Shown here: one piece after another, positions 11,644 through 39,600 of the stretch
Layout of the letters: the number at the start of each line of letters is the position of its first letter
How positions within the stretch are numbered: the first letter of the stretch is position 1
DNA from: Candidatus Moraniibacteriota bacterium
Lineage (GTDB): Bacteria; Patescibacteriota; Minisyncoccia; Moranbacterales; UBA2206
Length of the DNA stretch: 43,944 nt
Direction of reading: 5' to 3'
Assembly: GCA_049297495.1 (NCBI GenBank)
Contig: JBAQUL010000007.1
Location: 1-43,944 of the forward strand
Notes under the pieces: model-generated
Database searches by the model: none
What the model was told of the DNA's origin: nothing
Seen by the model: only the letters and a program-made list of their open reading frames with translations
Position numbers and translations under genes: made by a program

Positions 11644-11785
11644 TGTTATTCTGAGCGTAGCGCAGCGGAGTCGAAGAATCTACTATGGGTTATCGTAAAC
11701 TCTACTATATTGCAGAAAACTTGTGGTAGTGGATGGCAGATCCTTCGATTGCGTCCTGAGTACAGGACTCCGCTCAGGATGACAT
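11644..11785. repeat. Family-A MITE-like palindromic element, copy A1 (degenerate)
   Basis: Ends are tgttattctgagcgtagcgcagcggagtcgaagaatct and agatccttcgattgcgtcctgag..ctccgctcaggatgaca. It is homologous to 16229-16377 and 33804-33948. Confidence 0.75.
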
Positions 11786-14739: not shown

Positions 14740-14983
14740 TGTCATCCCCGAGAAGTCGGGGATCCAGGCACCTCGGGTTAACAATAAAGAGAAAGTGAAT
14801 TATTAAAATTCAAGACTTACTGAAGCAGAGAGTTTGTCAGACTTACGGTTCGATTTTCCAGGGCTCATAACTAGTGGTACCTGGATTCCCTGCCTACCGG
14901 TGGCACGCCGCCAAAGGCTATGGCCGACGGAGCGCAGGCAGGCCGCCGGAGTTTATACTCGTGAAACGGGTGCGGGAATGACA
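14740..14983. repeat. Family-E GC-rich composite palindromic element
   Basis: Left end tgtcatccccgagaagtcggggatccagg, right end cctggattccc...gcgggaatgaca. The GC-rich interior stands out from an AT-rich intergenic region. Confidence 0.6.
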
Positions 14984-15056: not shown

Positions 15057-16097
15057 ATGAAAATAGTTATCTCAGCTGGAGGAGTTGGCACGAGAATGTG
15101 GCCGTTGTCGCGAGAAAATTCGCCCAAACAATTCGATAAAATTTTTAACGGAAAATCGACATTGCAACTAGCCTATGATCGAGTGGCTCCGGCTTTTGGA
15201 GCAAAAAATATTTTCATCCAAACCATGCCGGCCTATCAGAAAATGATTCGCAAGCAACTTCCGGGACTGCCAAAGGCGAATATTTTTCTCGAACCGGCCA
15301 GGAGGGACAATGGTCCGGCAGTTTGCTTTGCCGTTAATCAGCTAGTCAAATTGGGGCACAGTGGTCCAATGGCAATTGTCTGGGCGGATCACTTGATGGA
15401 TCGGATTTCTGAGTTTAGGAAAGCTTTGAAAGCAGGTGAAAAACTAATTGAAAAGGAGGCCGATCGCTTTGTGTTCATCGCGGAGCGTCCTCGCTTTGCT
15501 AATAATAATTTGGGTTGGATGAAAGTGGGGGACCAAAAAGGCGAGATTGGTAAACGGGATTATTTCGGTTTTGAGGGCTGGAAGTATAAACCGGAAAAGG
15601 CGCTTTGTGATCAGATGTTTAAATCAGGAGAATATTATTGGAACCCAGGCTACTTTATCACTTCAGTGGAATTTCTGCATAATTGCTACAAGAAACTGGC
15701 ACCGGAAATTTTCAAATGCGTAACGAAGGGAAAATATGAGGATTGTCCTAAGCTGTCTTTTGATAATGCCATTATTGAAAAAGTTGACCTAACGAGCGCC
15801 GTGATTCTCAAGACCAATATGGGCTGGAGCGATCCGGGCACGCTCTATGCCTTGAAAGAAGCCTTGGAAAAAAGCAGTGATTGCAATGTGACAAAAGGCA
15901 ATGTGGTTGATTTTGAAACGAAAGATAGTCTTGTCTATAACTTTGAGCCAGGAAAAGTAGTGACAACAGTCGGTCTCAAAGGCATGGTAGTCGTGAATAC
16001 CAAAGACGCTATTGTTGTCGTGCATAAAGATGATGTAGTGAGGATTTCTAGTTTGGTGAAAGAAATGAAGGTGAGGGGGTTGGAGAAATACCTATAA
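15057..16097 (+). CDS. manC: Mannose-1-phosphate guanylyltransferase (NTP-transferase only, no PMI domain)
   Basis: MKIVISAGGVGTRMWPLSRENSPKQF, the G-x-G-T-R-x-x-P-L-S signature of sugar-1-P nucleotidyltransferases of the ManC type. Confidence 0.8.
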   Translation: MKIVISAGGVGTRMWPLSRENSPKQFDKIFNGKSTLQLAYDRVAPAFGAKNIFIQTMPAYQKMIRKQLPGLPKANIFLEPARRDNGPAVCFAVNQLVKLGHSGPMAIVWADHLMDRISEFRKALKAGEKLIEKEADRFVFIAERPRFANNNLGWMKVGDQKGEIGKRDYFGFEGWKYKPEKALCDQMFKSGEYYWNPGYFITSVEFLHNCYKKLAPEIFKCVTKGKYEDCPKLSFDNAIIEKVDLTSAVILKTNMGWSDPGTLYALKEALEKSSDCNVTKGNVVDFETKDSLVYNFEPGKVVTTVGLKGMVVVNTKDAIVVVHKDDVVRISSLVKEMKVRGLEKYL

Positions 16098-16100
16098 ATA

Positions 16101-16135
16101 AAATTTCCAAGCCCTAATTTCCAATGTCAAAATTA
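16101..16135. repeat. Family-D (AATTTCC-type) element, intergenic copy
   Basis: aaatttccaagccctaatttccaatgtcaaaatt shares the 17-mer aatttccaatgtcaaaa with the in-frame element in uvrB (18869-18885). Confidence 0.65.
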
Positions 16136-16145
16136 AAGAAAGTGC

Positions 16146-16195
16146 CTCCTCTCCCTCCGGGAGAGGATGTCACGAGCACGTGACAGGTGAGGGTT
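16146..16195. repeat. Family-B GC-rich double-hairpin element, half copy B1
   Basis: ctcctctccctccgggagaggatgtcacgagcacgtgacaggtgaggg is nearly identical to 39440-39488. Confidence 0.75.
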
Positions 16196-16228
16196 TTCTC
16201 TAATTCAGAGAAAATTGTAAAAAGCTCT

Positions 16229-16377
16229 TGTCATCCTGAGCGGAATAAATTTTCGATAGAAAATTTATTCAGTCGAAGGATCTGCTAGCTGTTATCGTTG
16301 GCCTAATGATTTATAATAAAACCTAGGATTACCGTAAGCAGATCCTTCGACTCCGCTACGCTACGCTCAGGATGACA
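16229..16377. repeat. Family-A MITE-like palindromic element, copy A2
   Basis: Terminal inverted repeats are tgtcatcctgagcgg...gtcgaaggatct and agatccttcgactccgctacgctacgctcaggatgaca. About 80% identical to copy A3. Confidence 0.8.
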
Positions 16378-16392
16378 GTTATTTTTTCCAAG

Positions 16393-17581: not shown

Positions 17582-19666
<2,085 letters not shown>

Positions 19667-27104: not shown

Positions 27105-27764
27105 ATGATACTAACAGCCAAACAACAAAACATTCTTGAATCGATTCGAGAATTGATCAGTCAGGGTAAAGAAAACCCGACTAGTTATCGCCTACAAAAA
27201 TATCTTGAATCACAAGGCGTCAAAGATAGCTTAAAGTCAGTGATGCAGGTGATTGAGTCATTGGAAAAAAAAGATCTCATCAAGCGCGACAAGAATAAAA
27301 AAATTTATCTGATTGAAAACGAGAACTACGCAAACTTCAAAAATATCTTTTCTGTTCCAGTCTATGGCCTGGCTTCTTGCGGAGAGGCTTTGGCCTATGC
27401 GCAGGATAACGTAGATGGCTTTTTGCAGATTTCCAAAGCCCTTTTTCGCGATAAAGATGAGTCGCTTTTGTTTGCTGTGAAGGCACTTGGTGACTCAATG
27501 GATAAAGAAAAAATTAATGATGGCGATTATGTCATTTTTGAAAAATATGAACAGCGAGAAGACCTGGAAGGCAAAATTGTGGTGGCAGTGGTGAATGGCA
27601 TGGCCACCATCAAGCGCTACAAAAAAGTCAGTGAAGATGTAATTGGCCTTTTTCCCAAATCGACCAACCCGATCCATCAGCCAATCTTCATCCACAAATC
27701 CGATTCCTTCATTTTTGCCGGAATTTTCCGCAAAGTCTTGCCGGTGAAATATGTGAGTTTGTAG
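27105..27764 (+). CDS. lexA: LexA-family repressor (wHTH plus S24 peptidase)
   Basis: N-terminal winged-helix region, the linker VPVYGLASCGEALAYA, the catalytic Ser in ALGDSM and Lys in ATIKRYKK. Confidence 0.8.
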   Translation: MILTAKQQNILESIRELISQGKENPTSYRLQKYLESQGVKDSLKSVMQVIESLEKKDLIKRDKNKKIYLIENENYANFKNIFSVPVYGLASCGEALAYAQDNVDGFLQISKALFRDKDESLLFAVKALGDSMDKEKINDGDYVIFEKYEQREDLEGKIVVAVVNGMATIKRYKKVSEDVIGLFPKSTNPIHQPIFIHKSDSFIFAGIFRKVLPVKYVSL

Positions 27765-29256: not shown

Positions 29257-29302
29257 AAAAAGTTGTAAACTGAAATATGCTAAATTATATTTTTTTATGC
29301 AA
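29257..29302 (+). repeat. direct repeat R2 (native uvrA-1 promoter and start)
   Basis: aaaaagttgtaaactgaaatatgctaaatt, then TATATT (29285-29290) 6 nt before the ATG at 29297. No SD is visible. Confidence 0.65.
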
Positions 29303-32300
29303 GACGAATTAATCATCCGCGGAGCGAGGGAGCATAATTTGAAAAATGTAAACCTTGATTTGCCGCGGAATAAATTTATTGTTTTTACAGGAATCAGTGG
29401 CTCAGGCAAGAGTACGCTGGCTTTTGATACTATTTTTGCTGAAGGGCAACGGCGTTATTTGGAAAGCTTATCCAGTTATGCTCGGCAGTTTTTGGGGCAG
29501 ATGGGAAAGCCGGAAGTGGATTCGATTGAGGGACTCAGTCCCGCGATTTCTATCGACCAAAAAGCCGCTTCGCATAATCCGCGCTCAACCGTGGGAACGG
29601 TGACGGAAATTCACGACTATCTGCGATTGCTTTATGCTAAAATTGGCACGGCGCATTGCCCCATTTGCAACAGGGAGATCGTGAAACTTTCCACGGATGA
29701 AATTGTGGACCGGATTTTGAATATTTGCACGGAAGGAAATAAAAAATCGACAAAAGACAATTGCACGATTGAAATTTTTTCTCCCATCGTGCGTGAGCGC
29801 AAAGGGGAATATTCGACACTACTGGAAGAAATGTTTCGGCGTGGTTTTTCCACTGCCTTTGTGAATGGAAAAAAATATGCGCTGGATGAAAAGATTGGCG
29901 CGCGGGTAAAGTTGGAACGCTACAAAAAACATAATATTGATATTTTGGTTGATAAAGTGGAAATTAATTCCGAGAATATTTCACGGATTTTTGAAGGCGT
30001 GGAGCAGGCGTTGAGATTGTCGAAAGGAATTGTCAAAGTAAAATTTCCAAATCCAAATTTCCAATTTCAAACCAAATCCAAAGTTCAAAATTATAATGAC
30101 AAAAAAAAGAAAAATACTTTTGCCAAGAAGGGAGAAGATTTTGAAATTAGTGAAGTAATTTTTAACCAAAATTTTTCTTGCCCGGTGCATGAGGTGGATT
30201 TTCCCGAATTGGAACCGCGCTTGTTTTCTTTCAATAGTCCATTTGGCGCTTGTCCGTCTTGCGAAGGCTTGGGTGTGAAAAAGGAAATTGATCCGGAACT
30301 AGTTGTGCCGGATATGAATAAAACGATTGCCGAAGGTGGAATTATGCCGTGGAGTTATAAGAAAAATAACTGGCAAGGCACAATTTTGCGCGCAGTGACC
30401 AATTTCTATCACATCCGCGATAATGTGCGATTACGTGACTTATCGGAGGATGATTTCAATACGTTACTTTACGGAAGTCCTGAATCAGAAGACATGATTG
30501 CCGAGGATGAAGCAGATGAAATCCCAGTGACGTTGCGCAGTAAAACCGGTTCAAGTTGGAAATATAATATGCGTTGGCGGGGAGTGGTGGGTTATTTGCA
30601 GGAGCGCTATCTTAAAACGGATTCGGAAAGCGTACGCACGGACATTGAAAAATATATGTCACAAAATCCTTGTTCGACTTGCCTCGGTTCGCGCTATAAA
30701 AAAGAAGTTTTGCTTGTAACTGTGGGAGATTCTGCCCGCAATGCTACGCTTTTAAATGGGACGGAGAATTCTGATAGTTATAGTAAAAAAACAAAGGAAG
30801 GCACTAACTCCAAGGAGCATAGCGTTGCAGGCGGGAAAAATATTTATGAAATTTCTAACATCAGCGTACGGGAAACCTTGGATTTTTTTCAAAAAATAAA
30901 ATTTAGTAAACGTGAAGAATTGATTGCCAGTCGAATTCTCAAGGAAATTCAAAATCGTTTGGGTTTTTTGCAAGATGTCGGCCTTGGCTATCTTTCCCTT
31001 GGTCGCGCCGCCAATACCCTGGCTGGTGGCGAATCTCAACGCATTCGTTTGGCTTCGCAAATCGGCTCACAACTCGTTGGCGTGCTCTATATCCTCGACG
31101 AACCATCAATCGGCCTTCATGCGCGCGATAACGCCAAATTGCTTTCCACACTTTTGCAACTGCGCGATGTGGGTAATACTCTTATTGTGGTCGAGCACGA
31201 CGAAGAAACAATGCGCGCGGCAGATTATCTCGTGGACATTGGACCGGGAGCAGGAAAACACGGCGGAGAAATTGTGGCCGAGGGGTCGCCGGAAGAAGTG
31301 ATGAAAAGTAAAAAGTCACTCACTGCCAAATATTTGCGTGGGGAAATGCAAATTGAAATCCCATCCTTTAGGCGATCGCTCAAAAACAAAAAAACACTTG
31401 TGGTGCGCGGAGCACGCGAGCATAATTTGCAAAATATTACTGTTTCGTTTCCACTTAAAGTTTTGACCTGTGTGACGGGCGTGTCTGGCTCAGGAAAATC
31501 AACTCTGGTCGAAGATATTCTCTATAAGGCCCTGTCGGCCAAAATTATGCGTTCCTTGGAACGTCCAGGCAAGCACAGTGAAATTGTCGGTGATCATTAT
31601 CTCAACAAAGTGATTATGATTGACCAGTCGCCAATTGGACGTACACCACGGTCCAATCCGGCCACCTACACCGGACTGTTCACTGCTATCCGTGAACTGT
31701 TTGCCGAAACGCGGGACGCCAAAGCAAAAGGTTATTCGCCGGGACGATTTTCTTTTAATGTTAAGGGCGGCCGCTGTGATAATTGTCAGGGTGATGGGTA
31801 CAACAAAATTGAAATGCAGTTTATGCCGGACGTCTATCTACCTTGTGATGTTTGCTCTGGAAAACGCTACAACAGCGAAACGCTGAAAGTGAAATATCGT
31901 GATAAAAATATTGCGGATGTACTGGCGATGACCATATCTGAAGCGCGTGAATTTTTTGCTAATTTTCATGATATTGCTGACAAACTGAAAGTTCTCGAAG
32001 ATGTTGGCTTGGGCTACATTCAACTCGGACAATCCGCTACGACGCTTTCCGGCGGAGAAGCGCAACGCATTAAACTTTCCACGGAACTGTCTCGCCGTGC
32101 CACAGGGGATACTTTATATATTCTAGACGAACCAACAACTGGTTTGCATTTTGATGACATCAAAAAACTGCTGGGAATTCTCAATCGTTTGGTTGATGCC
32201 GGCAACACCGTTATTGTAATTGAACATAATTTAGACGTAATCAAAACTGCCGATTGGATCATTGATCTTGGACCGGAAGGTGGCAAAGAAGGTGGAAAAG

Positions 32301-32389
32301 TGATCGTTTCCGGCACGCCAGAAGAAGTGGCGAAGTGGCATAAGGAGAGTTGGACAGGGAGGTATTTGAAAGAATGTCTGAACCACTGA
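29297..32389 (+). CDS. uvrA: Excinuclease ABC subunit A, paralogue 1 (canonical motifs, two in-frame repeat insertions)
   Basis: [59 protein letters not shown], Zn-finger CxxC pairs, a second ABC module [21 protein letters not shown]. 1030 aa. The tracked ORF start at 29051 is an out-of-gene extension. Confidence 0.95.
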   Translation: MQDELIIRGAREHNLKNVNLDLPRNKFIVFTGISGSGKSTLAFDTIFAEGQRRYLESLSSYARQFLGQMGKPEVDSIEGLSPAISIDQKAASHNPRSTVGTVTEIHDYLRLLYAKIGTAHCPICNREIVKLSTDEIVDRILNICTEGNKKSTKDNCTIEIFSPIVRERKGEYSTLLEEMFRRGFSTAFVNGKKYALDEKIGARVKLERYKKHNIDILVDKVEINSENISRIFEGVEQALRLSKGIVKVKFPNPNFQFQTKSKVQNYNDKKKKNTFAKKGEDFEISEVIFNQNFSCPVHEVDFPELEPRLFSFNSPFGACPSCEGLGVKKEIDPELVVPDMNKTIAEGGIMPWSYKKNNWQGTILRAVTNFYHIRDNVRLRDLSEDDFNTLLYGSPESEDMIAEDEADEIPVTLRSKTGSSWKYNMRWRGVVGYLQERYLKTDSESVRTDIEKYMSQNPCSTCLGSRYKKEVLLVTVGDSARNATLLNGTENSDSYSKKTKEGTNSKEHSVAGGKNIYEISNISVRETLDFFQKIKFSKREELIASRILKEIQNRLGFLQDVGLGYLSLGRAANTLAGGESQRIRLASQIGSQLVGVLYILDEPSIGLHARDNAKLLSTLLQLRDVGNTLIVVEHDEETMRAADYLVDIGPGAGKHGGEIVAEGSPEEVMKSKKSLTAKYLRGEMQIEIPSFRRSLKNKKTLVVRGAREHNLQNITVSFPLKVLTCVTGVSGSGKSTLVEDILYKALSAKIMRSLERPGKHSEIVGDHYLNKVIMIDQSPIGRTPRSNPATYTGLFTAIRELFAETRDAKAKGYSPGRFSFNVKGGRCDNCQGDGYNKIEMQFMPDVYLPCDVCSGKRYNSETLKVKYRDKNIADVLAMTISEAREFFANFHDIADKLKVLEDVGLGYIQLGQSATTLSGGEAQRIKLSTELSRRATGDTLYILDEPTTGLHFDDIKKLLGILNRLVDAGNTVIVIEHNLDVIKTADWIIDLGPEGGKEGGKVIVSGTPEEVAKWHKESWTGRYLKECLNH
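30041..30148 (+). repeat. family-D (AATTTCC / CCAAAT) element, in frame in uvrA-1
   Basis: aaatttccaaatccaaatttccaatttcaaacc...gattttgaaatt encodes FPNPNFQFQTKSKVQNYNDKKKKNTFAKKGEDFEI. The arms aatttcaaa / tttgaaatt are complementary. The left end is nearly identical to the intergenic 38293-38310. Confidence 0.6.
30732..30835 (+). repeat. family-A-derived element with terminal inverted repeats, in frame in uvrA-1
   Basis: ctgcccgcaatgctacgc and gcatagcgttgcaggcggg are 14/18 complementary. The centre ttatagtaaaa also occurs in copy A3. It encodes SARNATLLNGTENSDSYSKKTKEGTNSKEHSVAG between VTVG and GKNI. Confidence 0.6.
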
Positions 32390-32431
32390 TTAACACTGAT
32401 TGAAATGATTTCACTGAATTATAAAAAACAA

Positions 32432-33769
32432 ATGTCAACCAAAATCGCCAAAAAACTGAAAAGCTTGCCCACCTCTCCTGGTGTCTATATTTTCTATGCC
32501 CAAGGCGTAAATAATGCCGGGAAAATTTTGTATGTAGGCAAAGCCACGTCGTTGAAAGATCGGGTCGGGTCATATTTTCAAAGTCGCAGTGGCTATGCTC
32601 GGCCAATTGAGATGTTTATGGATCAGGTCGCGGATATTGAAGTTCGGAAAACCGAAACAGTTCTCGAGGCGTATATCTTGGAGCAGGAGCTGATCAAAAA
32701 GTGGCAACCGAAGTTTAATGTGGATGGGAAAGACGGAAAGTCATTTGCGCATGTATTTGTTACTAAAGAAGAATTTCCCCGGTTTATGGTCGTGCGAAAA
32801 ACTGATATTGTTCAAATTTCTAATTTCCAATTTCTAATTTCTAAACAAGTTCCAATTTCCAAGGAACAAATTTCAAAAAAAATACAAGCCACCAAAATCT
32901 ATGGTCCATATATTTCTAAGAAAAATATTGAGATAGCGCTGAAGATTCTCAGGAAAATTTTTCCCTACCATTCAAAAGCGCAAAAAACAGAAAGTGGTTG
33001 TTTGGATTTTCAGATTGGGCTTTGCCCTGGGCCATATGCTGGGGCGATTTCGAAAGAGGATTATGCGAAAAATATTAGGGGAATCAAAATGATTTTAGAG
33101 GGGAAGAAAAAAAGTCTTATTGCCAAGATGAAAAAGGAAATGTCGGATCTGAGTGAGAAACAAGAATTTGAAAAGGCGGGGAAGGTGAGAAATGCGATTT
33201 TTGCGTTGCAGCATATTCAGGATATAGCTATCATCTCTGATCGAGATGATAATTTCCAATTTCCAATTTCCAATTTCCAATCAATTTCCAATGATAAAAT
33301 TTCAAAATTAAAAAACATTCGAATTGAAGGATATGATATTTCTAATATTTCTGGAAAATCTAGTGTCGGGTCGATGGTGGTGTTTGATAATACGAACGGG
33401 GAAATCGGTCCGAACAAAAGCCAGTATCGGAAATTTAAAATAAAGACCGTGGAAGGCGCGAATGATACTGCTTCGATGGCGGAAGTGCTGGGTCGTAGAT
33501 TTGGGAATAGTTGGACTAAGCCGGATCTCATCATTCTAGATGGCGGGCAAGGCCACCTCACCGCCGTGAGGCGTGTGCTCAAAAATTTTCATCTGGAAAT
33601 TCCACTGCTGGCTGTTGCTAAGGGTCCCACGCGCAAAAAACTCGACCGCTATGCCTTCGGCAGTGTGCCGGAAATTTCCGACGAAATCATCGAACGCGTC
33701 AGGGATGAGGCGCATCGCTTTGCGATTACCTATCATAAGAAATTGCGAGGGAAGGAATTTATGAAATAG
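32432..33769 (+). CDS. uvrC: Excinuclease ABC subunit C, C-terminally short (no HhH region)
   Basis: GIY-YIG (PGVYIFY...ILYVGKATSLKDRVGSYF), UVR domain (EKQEFEKAGKVRNAIFALQHI), the endonuclease domain IEGYDISN...ILDGGQGHL, and RDEAHRFAITYHKKLR close to the stop. Start taken at MSTKIAKK (32432). Confidence 0.9.
   Translation: MSTKIAKKLKSLPTSPGVYIFYAQGVNNAGKILYVGKATSLKDRVGSYFQSRSGYARPIEMFMDQVADIEVRKTETVLEAYILEQELIKKWQPKFNVDGKDGKSFAHVFVTKEEFPRFMVVRKTDIVQISNFQFLISKQVPISKEQISKKIQATKIYGPYISKKNIEIALKILRKIFPYHSKAQKTESGCLDFQIGLCPGPYAGAISKEDYAKNIRGIKMILEGKKKSLIAKMKKEMSDLSEKQEFEKAGKVRNAIFALQHIQDIAIISDRDDNFQFPISNFQSISNDKISKLKNIRIEGYDISNISGKSSVGSMVVFDNTNGEIGPNKSQYRKFKIKTVEGANDTASMAEVLGRRFGNSWTKPDLIILDGGQGHLTAVRRVLKNFHLEIPLLAVAKGPTRKKLDRYAFGSVPEISDEIIERVRDEAHRFAITYHKKLRGKEFMK
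32815..32862 (+). repeat. degenerate AATTTCY heptamer run, in frame in uvrC
   Basis: aatttct aatttcc aatttct aatttct aaacaagttcc aatttcc encodes QISNFQFLISKQVPISK. Confidence 0.7.
33251..33292 (+). repeat. perfect (AATTTCC)x4 tandem heptamer plus a fifth unit, in frame in uvrC
   Basis: aatttcc x4 (33251-33278), then aatc, then aatttcc; encodes NFQFPISNFQSISN. Confidence 0.85.
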
Positions 33770-33803: not shown

Positions 33804-33948
33804 TGTCATCCTGAGCGGAGTCCTGATAGCAATCGGGACGCAGTCGAAGGATCTACTGACCATTATCGCTGGCTTAATTATTTATAGTAAAACCTACGAT
33901 TAATCGAAGCAGATCCTTCGACTCCACTACGTTTCGCTCAGGATGACA
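33804..33948. repeat. Family-A MITE-like palindromic element, copy A3
   Basis: tgtcatcctgagcggagtcc...gtcgaaggatct and agatccttcgactccactacgtttcgctcaggatgaca. It begins 35 nt after the uvrC stop. Confidence 0.8.
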
Positions 33949-35427: not shown

Positions 35428-35482
35428 TTGTTCCTAGTAATGCTATTGGCGTCTTTTTAAAAAATGTAACTCTTTTTTGCCT

Positions 35483-38290
35483 ATGTCAAAAAACAAACCA
35501 AAGGATAGAAGCCAGATTATCGTGCGCGGAGCACGGGTGAATAATTTGAAAAATATTGATGTGGAAATCCCACGGGACAGGCTGGTTGTCATTACCGGAC
35601 TGTCCGGTTCGGGCAAATCTTCTTTAGCTTTTGATGCGATTTATGCCGAAGGCAATCGGCGTTATCTTGAGGGAATGTCTAGCTACGCGACGCAATTTTT
35701 GGATGTGTCGGCCAAACCGGATGTGGACAAAATTGAAAATCTCACCCCAACCATTTCAATTGATCAAAAAAGTATCGCGCGCAGTCCGCGCTCAACTGTT
35801 GGGACACTGACGGAAATTTATGATTATCTGCGCGTGCTTTATGCGAAAACTGGAATGCCGCATTGCCCGCATTGCAAAACACCCTTAGAAAAAATTACTA
35901 ACTCAGAAGTATTGGAAGATATTCTTAACTCTCCCGACAAGACGAACATCGCAATTCTTGCCAAACTTAATGGCAAAGAGCGAAATTTGAAAGAAACCCT
36001 GAAAAGTGTTAGTCAGCTTGGCTATGCGCGGATTCGCTTCAAAGGGAAAATAATGTCACTTGCTGAAGCATTGGCACTAAATGATATTGATGCGGATGAG
36101 ACTTGCAATGCCGAGATCGTAATTGATCGGTTGGTTTTGAATAAAAAAAATCCTGATCGAGAAAGAATTTTAGATTCAATTGAGACTGCTTTCAAATTGG
36201 GCAAGGGTATGGCTGTGGTAATCAAAGATAATGAAGTTGAGAAAATATATAATCGTGATTTTGTGTGCAAGAAATGCTTTTTTGAAGTTGCCGATATCAC
36301 CCCAAAGCATTTTTCTTTCAATAGTCCTGAGGGTGCCTGTCAGCATTGTTCCGGACTTGGCATAATCAAGGAAATTGACGAGGATCTCCTAATCCCAAAT
36401 AAAAACCTGACGCTCGCTGAGGGAGCGATTTTGTCGTGGAATAAATCAGGCGGGAGATCAAGCGTGCTTGCCAGCGGGAATAATATTTTGAAAATGCTGG
36501 GGGATAAATATGGATTTTCTATCGATATTCCTGTGAAAAAAATCAGTCGTGAACATCTAAATATCGTGCTTTATGGTTCGAATGATCCTAAGATAATCTT
36601 TGAAGGAGTTATTCCGACAATGAAAAAGAAATATGAGGAAATGAATTCCAACTATCTGCGGAGTGAGATTGAAAAATACATGATTGAAAAAGTTTGTCCG
36701 CTTTGTTCGGGCAAGCGGTTAAAGGGGGAATATCTCTCAGTTCTTGTAGCAGGGAAATCAATTGATCAGACAGTGGACTTGTCTCTCGTGGATTTTTCTA
36801 TTTTTCTGGAAGCGTTAGAAAAAACAAATATTAGTTCGGTCAAGAAAAATATAATATTACCATTGGTCAAGGAGATGAAAGCGCGTAGTGCTGCACTTCA
36901 AAATGTAGGCTTAGGCTATCTTTCGCTTTCGCGCTCGGCTAATTCAATCTCCGGTGGAGAGGGGCAGCGTATTCGTCTGGCAACTCAGATCGGTTCGGAA
37001 CTTTCCGGTATCACTTATGTTCTGGACGAACCTTCAATTGGCCTGCATAATCGTGATACGGAAAAATTGGTAGCAACAATGGAAGAATTGCGCGAAGCGG
37101 GGAATTCCCTCATCACCGTGGAGCATGATGAACAAATAATTCGCCGTGCAGATTGGATTATTGATATGGGACCTGGCGCTGGCGAGGAAGGTGGAGAGGT
37201 GATTTTTTCTGGAGATCTTCAAAAACTTTTAAAATCAAAAACTTTGACAGCTCAATACCTGAATGGCAAAAGACAGGTCGGGGACAAGAAAAAGGCGCGC
37301 AAAGGTTCTGGAAAATTTATTAAAATTCAAGGAGCGACTGAACATAACTTGAAAGATATTGACGTGAATCTTCCCTTGGGGAAATTTATCTCGCTTACTG
37401 GCGTTTCTGGTTCAGGCAAATCAACGTTGGTAACAGATATCCTGTCGAAAGCTTTGGCGAAGTATTTTTTCAATACCAAAGAAGCTCCTGGTAAGCATAA
37501 GAAAATTAGTGGAATGGAAAGTATTGATAAGGTGATTAGTATCAATCAGTCTCCGATTGGTCGTACGCCACGATCAAATGCAGCAACGTATACTGGCGTA
37601 TTTTCACTCATCCGTGAGCTATTTGCGCAGACAGAGGAGTCGCATACTCGAGGATATGATGCCAGTCGGTTTAGTTTTAATATGAAAGGCGGGCGTTGCG
37701 AGGATTGCCAGGGAGAAGGAAAAAAGAAAATCGAGATGCATCTTTTGCCAGATGTCTATGTCGCTTGTGAAACTTGCAATGGTGCCAAGTACAATCAAAG
37801 AACGCTGGAAATTGAATACCGTGGAGTGAATATAGCTCAAGTGCTTGATATGAGTGTGAGTTATGCGTTAGCCTTTTTCAAGAATTCTAAATTAGTGACA
37901 GAAAAATTAGTCACACTGGAAAAAGTTGGTCTGGGCTATCTGAAATTGGGACAAAGCGCAGTAGACCTCTCTGGTGGAGAGGCACAGCGGATTAAATTAG
38001 CAACAGAGCTTTCTCGTCGTGCGACCGGCAAAACTCTGTACATTTTGGACGAACCAACAATTGGTCTCCATTTTGAAGACATTCGAAAACTCTTGGGAGT
38101 GCTTGATGCACTCGTTGACAAGGGCAATACTGTTTTGGTTGTTGAACATAATGTCGATGTGATTCGCAATTCCGATTGGGTGATTGATTTAGGACCGGAA
38201 GGCGGAAATGGTGGGGGAGAAATCGTGTTTGAAGGGTCACCGACAGAGCTGAAAAAATGCTCAAAGAGTTGGACGGGGAAATATCTCTAA
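35483..38290 (+). CDS. uvrA: Excinuclease ABC subunit A, paralogue 2 (divergent, insertion-free)
   Basis: [35 protein letters not shown], Zn-finger CxxC pairs, [21 protein letters not shown]. About 935 aa from the ATG at 35483 (tracked TTG at 35477). Confidence 0.9.
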
Positions 38291-38292
38291 AG

Positions 38293-38368
38293 AAATTTCA
38301 AAATCCAAATAGTATTTTTTGAATTTTGTCATTTGATATTGATTTGAAATTGGTTATTGGAAATTAGA
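38293..38368. repeat. family-D element in hairpin configuration (terminator-like) after uvrA-2
   Basis: aaatttcaaaatccaaat ... gatttgaaattggttattggaaatt; the arms are partly complementary. Confidence 0.55.
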
Positions 38369-38375
38369 TATTAAT

Positions 38376-39439: not shown

Positions 39440-39600
39440 TCTCCTCGCCCTTCGGGAGAGGATGTCACGAGCACGTGACAGGTGAGGGCAAGGGCTTTTG
39501 ATAAACTTATTATTATCCTATGTACAACGTTTTTCCCTCCTATAACACCCTTGCCCTCATCCGGCCTTCGGCCACCTTCTCCCGATGGGAGAAGGGGAAC
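39440..39600. repeat. Family-B GC-rich element, full copy B2, inside the groEL leader
   Basis: The left half is nearly identical to B1. The 12-bp arms tgagggcaaggg (39483-39494) and cccttgccctca (39548-39559) are perfectly complementary. Terminal hairpins are ctcgcccttcgggagag and cttctcccgatgggagaagg. Confidence 0.7.

Follow-up and report, generated by a model that had tools for sequence, protein, structure and literature searches.

How does an essential repair gene come to carry some hundred additional nucleotides in the middle of its open reading frame (ORF)? The question is raised by a stretch of 43,944 nt from Candidatus Moraniibacteriota bacterium (contig JBAQUL010000007.1 of assembly GCA_049297495.1), hereafter called the window, meaning the whole stretch at its full length. 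It has a GC content of 41% and belongs to a genome of the Moranbacteria, within the candidate phyla radiation (CPR, or Patescibacteria). Its gene uvrA-1 holds an in-frame segment which an initial annotation, made from the letters alone, had taken for a palindromic element derived from a miniature inverted-repeat transposable element (MITE), related to an intergenic family of the same window and behaving like the Rickettsia palindromic elements (RPEs). We put the probability at about 0.8 that this segment represents a non-autonomous repeat element with palindromic ends, one copy of a family here called W. Its layout, two inverted GC-rich half-sites of 18-19 nt around a variable, AT-rich centre, is that of a dimer of repetitive extragenic palindromic (REP) sequences, also known as a REPIN. 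The family has members in a number of genes that are unrelated to each other, in either orientation, and the element entered uvrA-1 within a shallow clade of Moranbacteria, precisely between two codons and without a target-site duplication.

The protein encoded by uvrA-1 carries the Pfam domains UvrA_inter, UvrA_DNA-bind and ABC_tran, matches solved UvrA structures over its full length, and has orthologues of 70-91% identity within the Moranbacteria, metagenome-assembled genomes of this group giving its best matches. Positions 30731-30835 of the window, exactly 105 nt, are absent from one of these orthologues, that of locus L001 (91% amino acid identity). With a caret marking the boundary, here and below, the filled site reads GTG GGA GAT ^ TCT GCC CGC ... 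GGC GGG ^ AAA AAT, and the empty site of L001 reads GTG GGA AAT ^ AAA AAT. The in-frame extra DNA that had been claimed is therefore real; of its proposed extent, 30732-30835 or about 104 nt, the right end was placed correctly, whereas the left end lies one base further out. The peptide that had been quoted for it is also correct, and the uvrA paralogue of the window, uvrA-2, indeed runs through this site without a gap, as its translation shows. When aligned by HMMER to all solved UvrA chains, the uvrA-1 protein is matched up to residue 477 and again from residue 511. Residues 478-510 have no counterpart and fall, in 9gxk, between chain residues 446 and 445, so that the segment is an insertion with respect to these structures too. 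The UvrA DNA-binding domain is followed by a zinc module, and the segment comes after the second CxxC of that module and ahead of the first ABC signature motif. An AlphaFold model using 43 orthologues, with a moderate overall predicted local distance difference test score (pLDDT) of 66, assigns the insert a pLDDT of about 25 and leaves it without secondary structure, flanked by a strand (474-476) and a helix (516-521), and thus models it as a disordered surface loop that is compatible with the UvrA fold.

The imperfect inverted repeats that had been noticed at its ends were recovered by pairing 30732-30749 with 30817-30834, with 14 of 18 positions in Watson-Crick register, or 16 of 18 counting G·T (the four mismatches being two T·G and two C·A). 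Taken alone, this is only modestly unusual, since 14/18 is also attained in 2.3% of 130-nt pieces taken at random from the sequence; an exact-seed repeat search of the insert region (seed 6) returned nothing relevant, the longest exact run of the inverted repeat being 5. Folding of the segment gives a z-score of -4.5 as RNA and of -1.2 as DNA. Only one of the six frames of the element is open and its length is divisible by three, which means that it would be translated as a 35-residue hydrophilic stretch. This stretch is not a protein domain, as phmmer found 0 matches to the insert peptide among 1.84 billion representative proteins; a protein word-index search with a 40-aa peptide gave no candidate either, no protein sharing three 5-residue words with it, and Rfam holds no family that matches the insert. 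The same 1030-aa protein is on record in an NCBI metagenome-assembled genome (MAG; GCA_049296015.1) and in an independent Logan assembly, which shows that the insert is not an accident of assembly.

It is the recurrence of the arms elsewhere that identifies the segment as one of a family. In a blastn search of the inserts against 1.2 Mb of related loci (L numbers; P numbers denote UvrA proteins), the arms recur in two GTDB loci, L018 and L026, around unrelated centres and in the same frame, reading PAR(N/H)AT … (H/Y)S(V/I)AGG. The copy of L018 matches the right arm at 19/19 and the left arm at 17/18 positions and measures 104 nt end to end, and L026 has two tandem units, with the left arm at 0-1 mismatch and variants of the right arm. 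The exact two-arm pattern occurs in 19 copies in 18 JGI/ENA metagenome loci; these copies were picked by that pattern, and the right arm is present in all of them. Over the copies the element is 94-110 nt long, and the centres are mostly unrelated to each other, that of the uvrA copy in L082 being homologous and that of the uvrB copies in L084 and L090 related to the centre in the window. Copies inside genes are all 102, 105 or 108 nt long and free of stop codons, and those in forward orientation share the phase of the window copy. On AT-rich, CPR-like contigs (36-43% GC), every copy lies within an ORF, and three of the nine distinct host sites of the long form are in uvrA or uvrB.

Beyond the repair genes, copy number varies in a conserved, very basic ORF of 34 aa (MKKTKGEKREKKKKPKMRVSGKSVFKIKEIKDR), which has no Pfam match and lies near secG in L002. 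It is empty in at least nine loci, carries one copy in four and two tandem copies in two, so that one or two W-type elements double or triple its length. The L083 copy lies in a UvrA that is only 52-54% identical to the Moranbacteria UvrA-1; the gene has a GC content of 63% and the element centre one of 31%, a difference that, judged by composition, would mark the centre as foreign DNA. Arm copies were also seen in arrays on contigs of 55-60% GC (L074, L078, L085 and L088), and together with the arms in L083 these indicate that the half-site is not confined to Moranbacteria.

How precisely the element was inserted can be read from three filled/empty pairs, in uvrA, uvrB and the small ORF. In each of them exactly (C/T)CT GCC … GGC GGG is inserted between codons, no bases are duplicated, and the ends of the inserted DNA coincide exactly with the arms. 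Between the window and L082, the arms are 100% conserved, apart from the base at which the insert starts, immediately upstream of the left arm, and about one fifth of the centre positions differ. The coordinates of these and all further features are collected in Table 1.

Table 1. Inserted element, its relatives, and other genes and repeats of the window and of related loci
Feature	Sequence	Position	Strand or orientation	Remarks
uvrA-1 CDS (coding sequence), host of the inserted element	window	29297..32389	+	1030 aa; ORF and translation
Inserted element	window	30731..30835	+	105 nt, 35 codons, residues S479-G513, read SARNATLLNGTENSDSYSKKTKEGTNSKEHSVAGG
Left arm, CTGCCCGCAATGCTACGC	window	30732..30749	+	encodes ARNAT; pairs 14/18 with right arm
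AT-rich variable centre	window	30750..30816	+	34% GC, 67 nt
Right arm, GCATAGCGTTGCAGGCGGG	window	30817..30835	+	encodes HSVAGG
W copy in uvrA	L082	same site		host is a clade-mate, 95%; centre homologous, 87% identity
W copy in uvrA	L083	1852-1955	minus	VGG^KN boundary; same site as in window
W copy in uvrB	L084/L090	IERKE^RVLIT	forward	centre visibly related to that of window
W copies in pyruvate kinase, CCA-adding enzyme and GT4 glycosyltransferase			forward	Pfam assignments
W copy in phosphoglycerate mutase (iPGM)			reverse	other reading frame
W copies in 34-aa ORF	L018	5066-5272
W copies in 34-aa ORF	L073	2180-2386
W copies in 34-aa ORF	L026	4710-5028
34-aa ORF, empty (example)	L015	4956-5054
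Short form in uvrB, two abutting half-sites	window	18566..18601	+	36 nt, in frame, MDYF^SARNASRSDADG; arm search, at most 4 mismatches
Second, degenerate tandem unit in uvrB	window	18602..18637	+	read SANNASHGNGGG; direct sequence reading
uvrB	window	17582-19666		UvrB by Pfam
uvrC	window	32405-33769
uvrA-2 (uvrA paralogue)	window	35477-38290
LexA-like S24 peptidase gene	window	27105-27764
Family A (intergenic element)	window	33804-33948; 16215-16391; 11644-11784	last one reverse	3 copies, 145-175 nt
AT-rich repeat family (AATTTCCAATTTCCAA...), in genes	window	30036-30106 (uvrA-1); 32809-32879 and 33245-33315 (uvrC); 18849-18884 (uvrB)
AT-rich repeat family (AATTTCCAATTTCCAA...), intergenic	window	16096-16131; 38313-38373	latter inverted

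Is the window alone in having something at this place of UvrA? We compared the 120 best orthologues of UvrA-1 and placed them in a neighbour-joining tree. The nearest of them, 95-97% identical over the conserved columns, all read VTVG-(N/G/D)-KN without the segment. At least 15 of the 120 Moranbacteria proteins carry an insert at VTVG-x^KN, and these inserts come from at least four sequence families; besides the window, at least 14 proteins thus have different extra segments at the same boundary. Among the families are type a ('PPHQ…NWCGG'), type b ('PASTRGDDRSSTRGG'), 'HARNASRSEAGG' (in P0054) and a few more. Type a has perfect 15-nt terminal inverted repeats in L002 (CCCCCACACCAATTT / AAATTGGTGTGGGGG), and type b is in L003 a 45-nt palindrome, CCCGCCTCGACTCGCGGAGACGACCGCTCGTCGACGCGAGGCGGG. 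Proteins that bear an insert are scattered over the tips of the tree: P0076 and P0080, with type b, are 99% identical to the empty P0090 and P0094, and the sisters P0033 and P0038, which are 95% identical, carry type a and type b, respectively. The uvrA-1 loci of GTDB-representative Moranbacteria, with the site readable in 40 of 41, show no insert of any kind there, and the comparative signal at this site therefore comes from the protein collection and the metagenomes. Two UvrA proteins of Verrucomicrobiota (L048, L051) have unrelated extra loops at the site, which are not recognisable palindromic repeats and suggest that this position of UvrA is intrinsically permissive.

The half-sites, with the profile CYGCCYGCAAYGCTAYGC, are not always separated by a variable centre. 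In uvrB of the window, and in L008, L015 and L026, two of them abut to give a short form of 36 nt, and such short forms also occupy two other hot spots of uvrA-1 (L026, L003). The two tandem, GC-rich units in uvrB of the window, both in frame, belong to the same superfamily as the insert in uvrA-1. The uvrB orthologue of L008 has a short element at the same place in the opposite orientation, reading PARIATRSVAGG, and uvrB of L084 carries a type-b element at this very site, MDYF^GRDF. Since the flip of orientation alters the peptide (PARIATRSVAGG versus SARNASRSDADG) and leaves the palindrome as it is, what is conserved is the DNA or RNA hairpin and not the peptide, in agreement with the empty protein searches. 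Type b, at 45 nt, is a multicopy sister family that almost always reads PASTRGDDRSSTRGG. It is found at four boundaries of uvrA-1, in uvrC at NKW^PLPN (three genomes), in uvrB at RKE^RVLIT, which in L084 is taken by a W element instead, and in other ORFs; as the sample of loci was centred on uvrA, the counts of this family in nucleotide excision repair (NER) genes are inflated. Its copies are 91-98% identical across genomes that have 60-87% identity in the coding flanks, which points to recent spread or homogenisation. A scan of the 120 UvrA-1 proteins for element peptides revealed six or more hot spots, the majority shared by more than one family.

How would such an element have come to where it is? 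A family of non-autonomous, palindrome-ended repeats may have spread by hairpin-dependent copy-in without target duplication, candidate routes being single-strand transposition of the HUH type, as catalysed by REP-associated tyrosine transposases (RAYTs), or a template-switch copy from another locus. In a gene-dense genome, selection would then remove all insertions but those that are in frame and within permissive, charged, purine-rich stretches that encode loops, and UvrA would tolerate the extra loop rather than make use of it. Several observations weigh against this reading. The inserts of the window and L082 are 87% identical and their flanks 83-89%; this similar divergence indicates that the window copy has been inherited vertically for some time and is currently a passenger, with no sign of current mobility. 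A sensitive blastn search with the insert gave no second long copy in the 44-kb window, and the viral contigs hold no copy of W or b elements. Nothing was found by tblastn in 1.4 Mb of related loci with approximate queries for IS200 TnpA and RAYT (YafM), and no cognate autonomous insertion sequence (IS) with the same ends was seen in those 1.4 Mb. Moreover, different families on identical codon boundaries are not explained by random insertion and selection alone, and it is from the open frame that we infer translation of the insert.

Could the segment instead be an ancestral UvrA loop, a low-complexity loop grown in situ, or an artefact of assembly, with an inverted repeat that is there by coincidence? 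The modest rarity of the repeat and the existence of other lineage-specific loops in UvrA would allow for it, but the nearest relatives of the window uvrA-1 have empty sites, the arms are identical in other genes, the MAG and the Logan assembly agree on the protein, and L082 has a diverged copy at the same site; such an origin is extremely unlikely. The initial annotation had named an ancestral loop as the alternative, and what we find is an insertion, with empty nearest orthologues and with the carriers of inserts scattered over the tips of the tree. Hardly any more credible is the parentage proposed there, which relates the insert, as a diverged form, to the intergenic MITE of family A at 33804-33948. 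That family has the termini TGTCATCCTGAGCG / CGCTCAGGATGACA, an internal palindrome AGTCGAAGGATC and no match in Rfam. The 11-mer TTATAGTAAAA does occur near the centre of both elements, at 30778 and 33882, and nowhere else in the window, as had been pointed out. However, once the choice of the 11-mer is allowed for, this similarity is within chance: when 105-nt segments are drawn at random from the window, 37% of them have an identical run of 13 nt or more somewhere else in it, and the best local alignment between insert and family-A copy, which ranks below the top match, spans 14 nt (E = 3.7). In addition, the other two family-A copies have GATTTATAATAAAACC and CAATATAGTAGAGTTT in place of the 11-mer, the terminal repeats of family A are unrelated to the arms, and the true relatives of the insert have unrelated centres. 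We therefore rejected descent from, or relatedness to, family A. The label MITE does not fit in its strict sense either, as there is no target-site duplication in the three filled/empty pairs and no matching autonomous element was seen in the 1.4 Mb of loci. An intein, an intron, a CRISPR repeat and an integron attC site were likewise considered and rejected: the size of the segment speaks against them, its arms are inverted and not direct, its frame is open, and the motifs that define them are lacking.

A more serious contender is that target-directed insertion ('homing'), or conversion from allele to allele, puts palindromes at fixed codon boundaries of NER genes, so that the families W ('ARNAT…SVAGG'), b and a would be directed to these boundaries and not merely survive there, in Moranbacteria lineages and in at least one distant lineage of 63% GC. 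We consider this possible, though doubtful. The repeated use of VTVG-x^KN by several families on scattered tips, including the sisters with different families and the nearly identical proteins that differ in presence or absence, speaks in its favour, as does the same behaviour at VKG^GRC and DEA^DEIPV of uvrA, KE^RVL and DYF^GRD of uvrB, and KW^PLP of uvrC. So do the arms in the distant UvrA of L083, at the same site and around a compositionally foreign centre, the share of uvrA and uvrB among the long-form host sites, and the preference of intragenic REPs for NER genes that was noted in other phyla (PMC3733652). Conversely, the flanks of the insertions have no conserved nucleotide motif and are only purine- or A-rich, the W family also resides in pyruvate kinase, the CCA-adding enzyme, the glycosyltransferase and phosphoglycerate mutase, the unrelated, non-palindromic loops of Verrucomicrobiota suggest a site that is simply permissive, and the uvrA-centred sample inflates the NER counts of the 45-nt family. 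If true, directed insertion would amount to an unrecognised homing-type or repair-coupled mechanism for hairpin elements, and would answer a question that dates from 2013, namely why intragenic REPs are found by preference in uvrABC genes. It is also conceivable, but unlikely, that the hairpin or the peptide was co-opted, either as a loop with a function in UvrA or as a structure in the uvrA mRNA with a role in its stability, its processing or the pausing of translation, and is kept by selection. The strong fold of the sense-strand RNA, the conservation of the arms over the centre between window and L082, and the conservation of the 45-nt family above its coding flanks would agree with that, whereas the lack of the element in close relatives, its occurrence in both orientations and in unrelated host genes, a peptide and a sequence that match nothing in the protein and Rfam searches, and the predicted disorder of the loop argue against it.

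The surroundings of uvrA-1 have some features of their own. Within 21 kb (17582-38290), the window clusters uvrB, the gene for a LexA-like S24 peptidase, uvrA-1, uvrC and the second uvrA paralogue, and the gene order S24 peptidase, uvrA-1, uvrC, uvrA-2 is repeated in L002-L004. A second, AT-rich repeat family (AATTTCCAATTTCCAA...) is present in frame in uvrA-1, uvrB and uvrC, where it reads ...SNFQFQ/ISNFQ.... Its copy in uvrA-1 occupies a second hypervariable loop of low model confidence, at residues ~250-285, the length of which is very variable among orthologues. One UvrA homologue, P0086, reaches 1548 aa (51% identity, 99% query coverage); its excess of about 500 residues over its relatives may be due to a large insertion such as an intein. 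A GC-rich repeat of 48 nt (CTCCTC.CCCT.CGGGAGAGGATGTCACGAGCACGTGACAGGTGAGGG), with the internal palindrome GTCACGAGCACGTGAC, is found at 16146-16193 and 39441-39488 with 96% identity. The largest GC-rich island of the window, 14887-14953 (67 nt), lies inside an ORF of 72 codons, itself probably spurious, and no Rfam family matches this island at the gathering threshold.

What, then, does an element of this kind mean for its hosts and for those who study them? In CPR bacteria, the many lineage-specific protein insertions and the unequal lengths of otherwise near-identical orthologues may in part stem from such repeats, which would then have been overlooked as their source, and the inserts can mislead the assignment of orthologues, the trimming of alignments and trees built from CPR marker genes. 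Filled and empty alleles at 95-99% identity, several families that compete for one codon boundary, and a 34-aa protein that has been tripled make up a natural experiment, which bears on the target choice of hairpin elements and on their frequent hits in excision-repair genes. The recurrent insertions at the same boundaries of these genes are the most interesting open thread.

Among known systems, the GC clusters of yeast mitochondria and the 'byp' elements are likewise GC-rich palindromic mini-elements within coding genes of AT-rich, compact genomes. They are organellar, and byps are skipped by the ribosome, whereas the open frame that is kept here in every in-gene copy argues for translation. 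REPINs, as reportedly described by Bertels and Rainey in 2011, are REP doublets that form hairpins and are mobilised by RAYT transposases; they lie outside genes, with a spacer that takes part in the hairpin. Our element resembles them in its two inverted short repeats, its spacer of ~60-70 nt, its unit of ~100 nt, which folds as a long hairpin, and the lack of a target-site duplication, and differs in that its copies are intragenic and in frame, that its spacer is unstructured and variable, and that no RAYT was found in the loci searched. With classical MITEs (Correia/NEMIS, ERIC, RUP, Nezha) it shares its small, non-coding size, its multiple copies and its terminal inverted repeats. Unlike them, it lacks a target-site duplication in the three filled/empty pairs and a cognate IS with the same ends in the loci covered, and its interior is not conserved. 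Occasional in-frame fusions with host ORFs are on record for bacterial MITEs as well (PMC10969869).

The behaviour of the element recalls the RPEs, as the initial annotation had fairly stated. These elements (RPE-1 to RPE-10) are ~100-150 bp long, lie in frame in unrelated housekeeping genes, are translated, and occur as several families per genome (PMC10969869, PMC3733652). In both cases a repeated palindromic element sits in frame in unrelated genes and adds a peptide that is compatible with the fold of the host protein. The likeness observed is one of behaviour, and the host is here a CPR bacterium instead of an alphaproteobacterium; furthermore, short forms of 36-45 nt exist, and more than one family makes use of the same codon boundaries. 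Even more closely, the element matches the intragenic single and dimeric REPs. The GTAG- and CGTC-tagged REPs (Di Nocera et al. 2013, PMC3733652) are short GC-rich palindromes, single or arranged as inverted dimers with variable spacers of 20-100 bp. Intragenic REPs have been documented in uvrA, uvrB, uvrC, uvrD, recBCD and DNA polymerases of several phyla, with an apparent preference for repair genes, and include inserts in uvrA of a Thioalkalivibrio strain, in both uvrA copies of Opitutus terrae and in uvrB of R. conorii (PMC3733652). Our element likewise has short GC-rich palindromes, as singles or as inverted dimers with a variable spacer, inside uvr ORFs. It departs from the tagged REPs in that CTAC (left arm) and (G/A)TAG (right arm) lie inside the arms, where the REP tag is at one end and outside the stem, in that each half-site is not itself a stem-loop, and in that tblastn with approximate queries revealed no RAYT in the 1.4 Mb.

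These intragenic REPs in uvrA, uvrB and uvrC, to which the initial annotation made no link, are already documented in other phyla (PMC3733652), and the novelty is lower for it. Its statement that such behaviour is not described for CPR does agree with our own reading of the literature, in which we found nothing on such elements in CPR, and CPR genomes lay outside the REP survey of PMC3733652. What this locus presents is an element of the RPE and intragenic-REP type in CPR, a phylum-level group that is new for it, whereas the kind itself is already known. In-frame selfish palindromic repeats in essential genes, seen in Rickettsia first and in scattered REP-rich bacteria later, now extend to the CPR.

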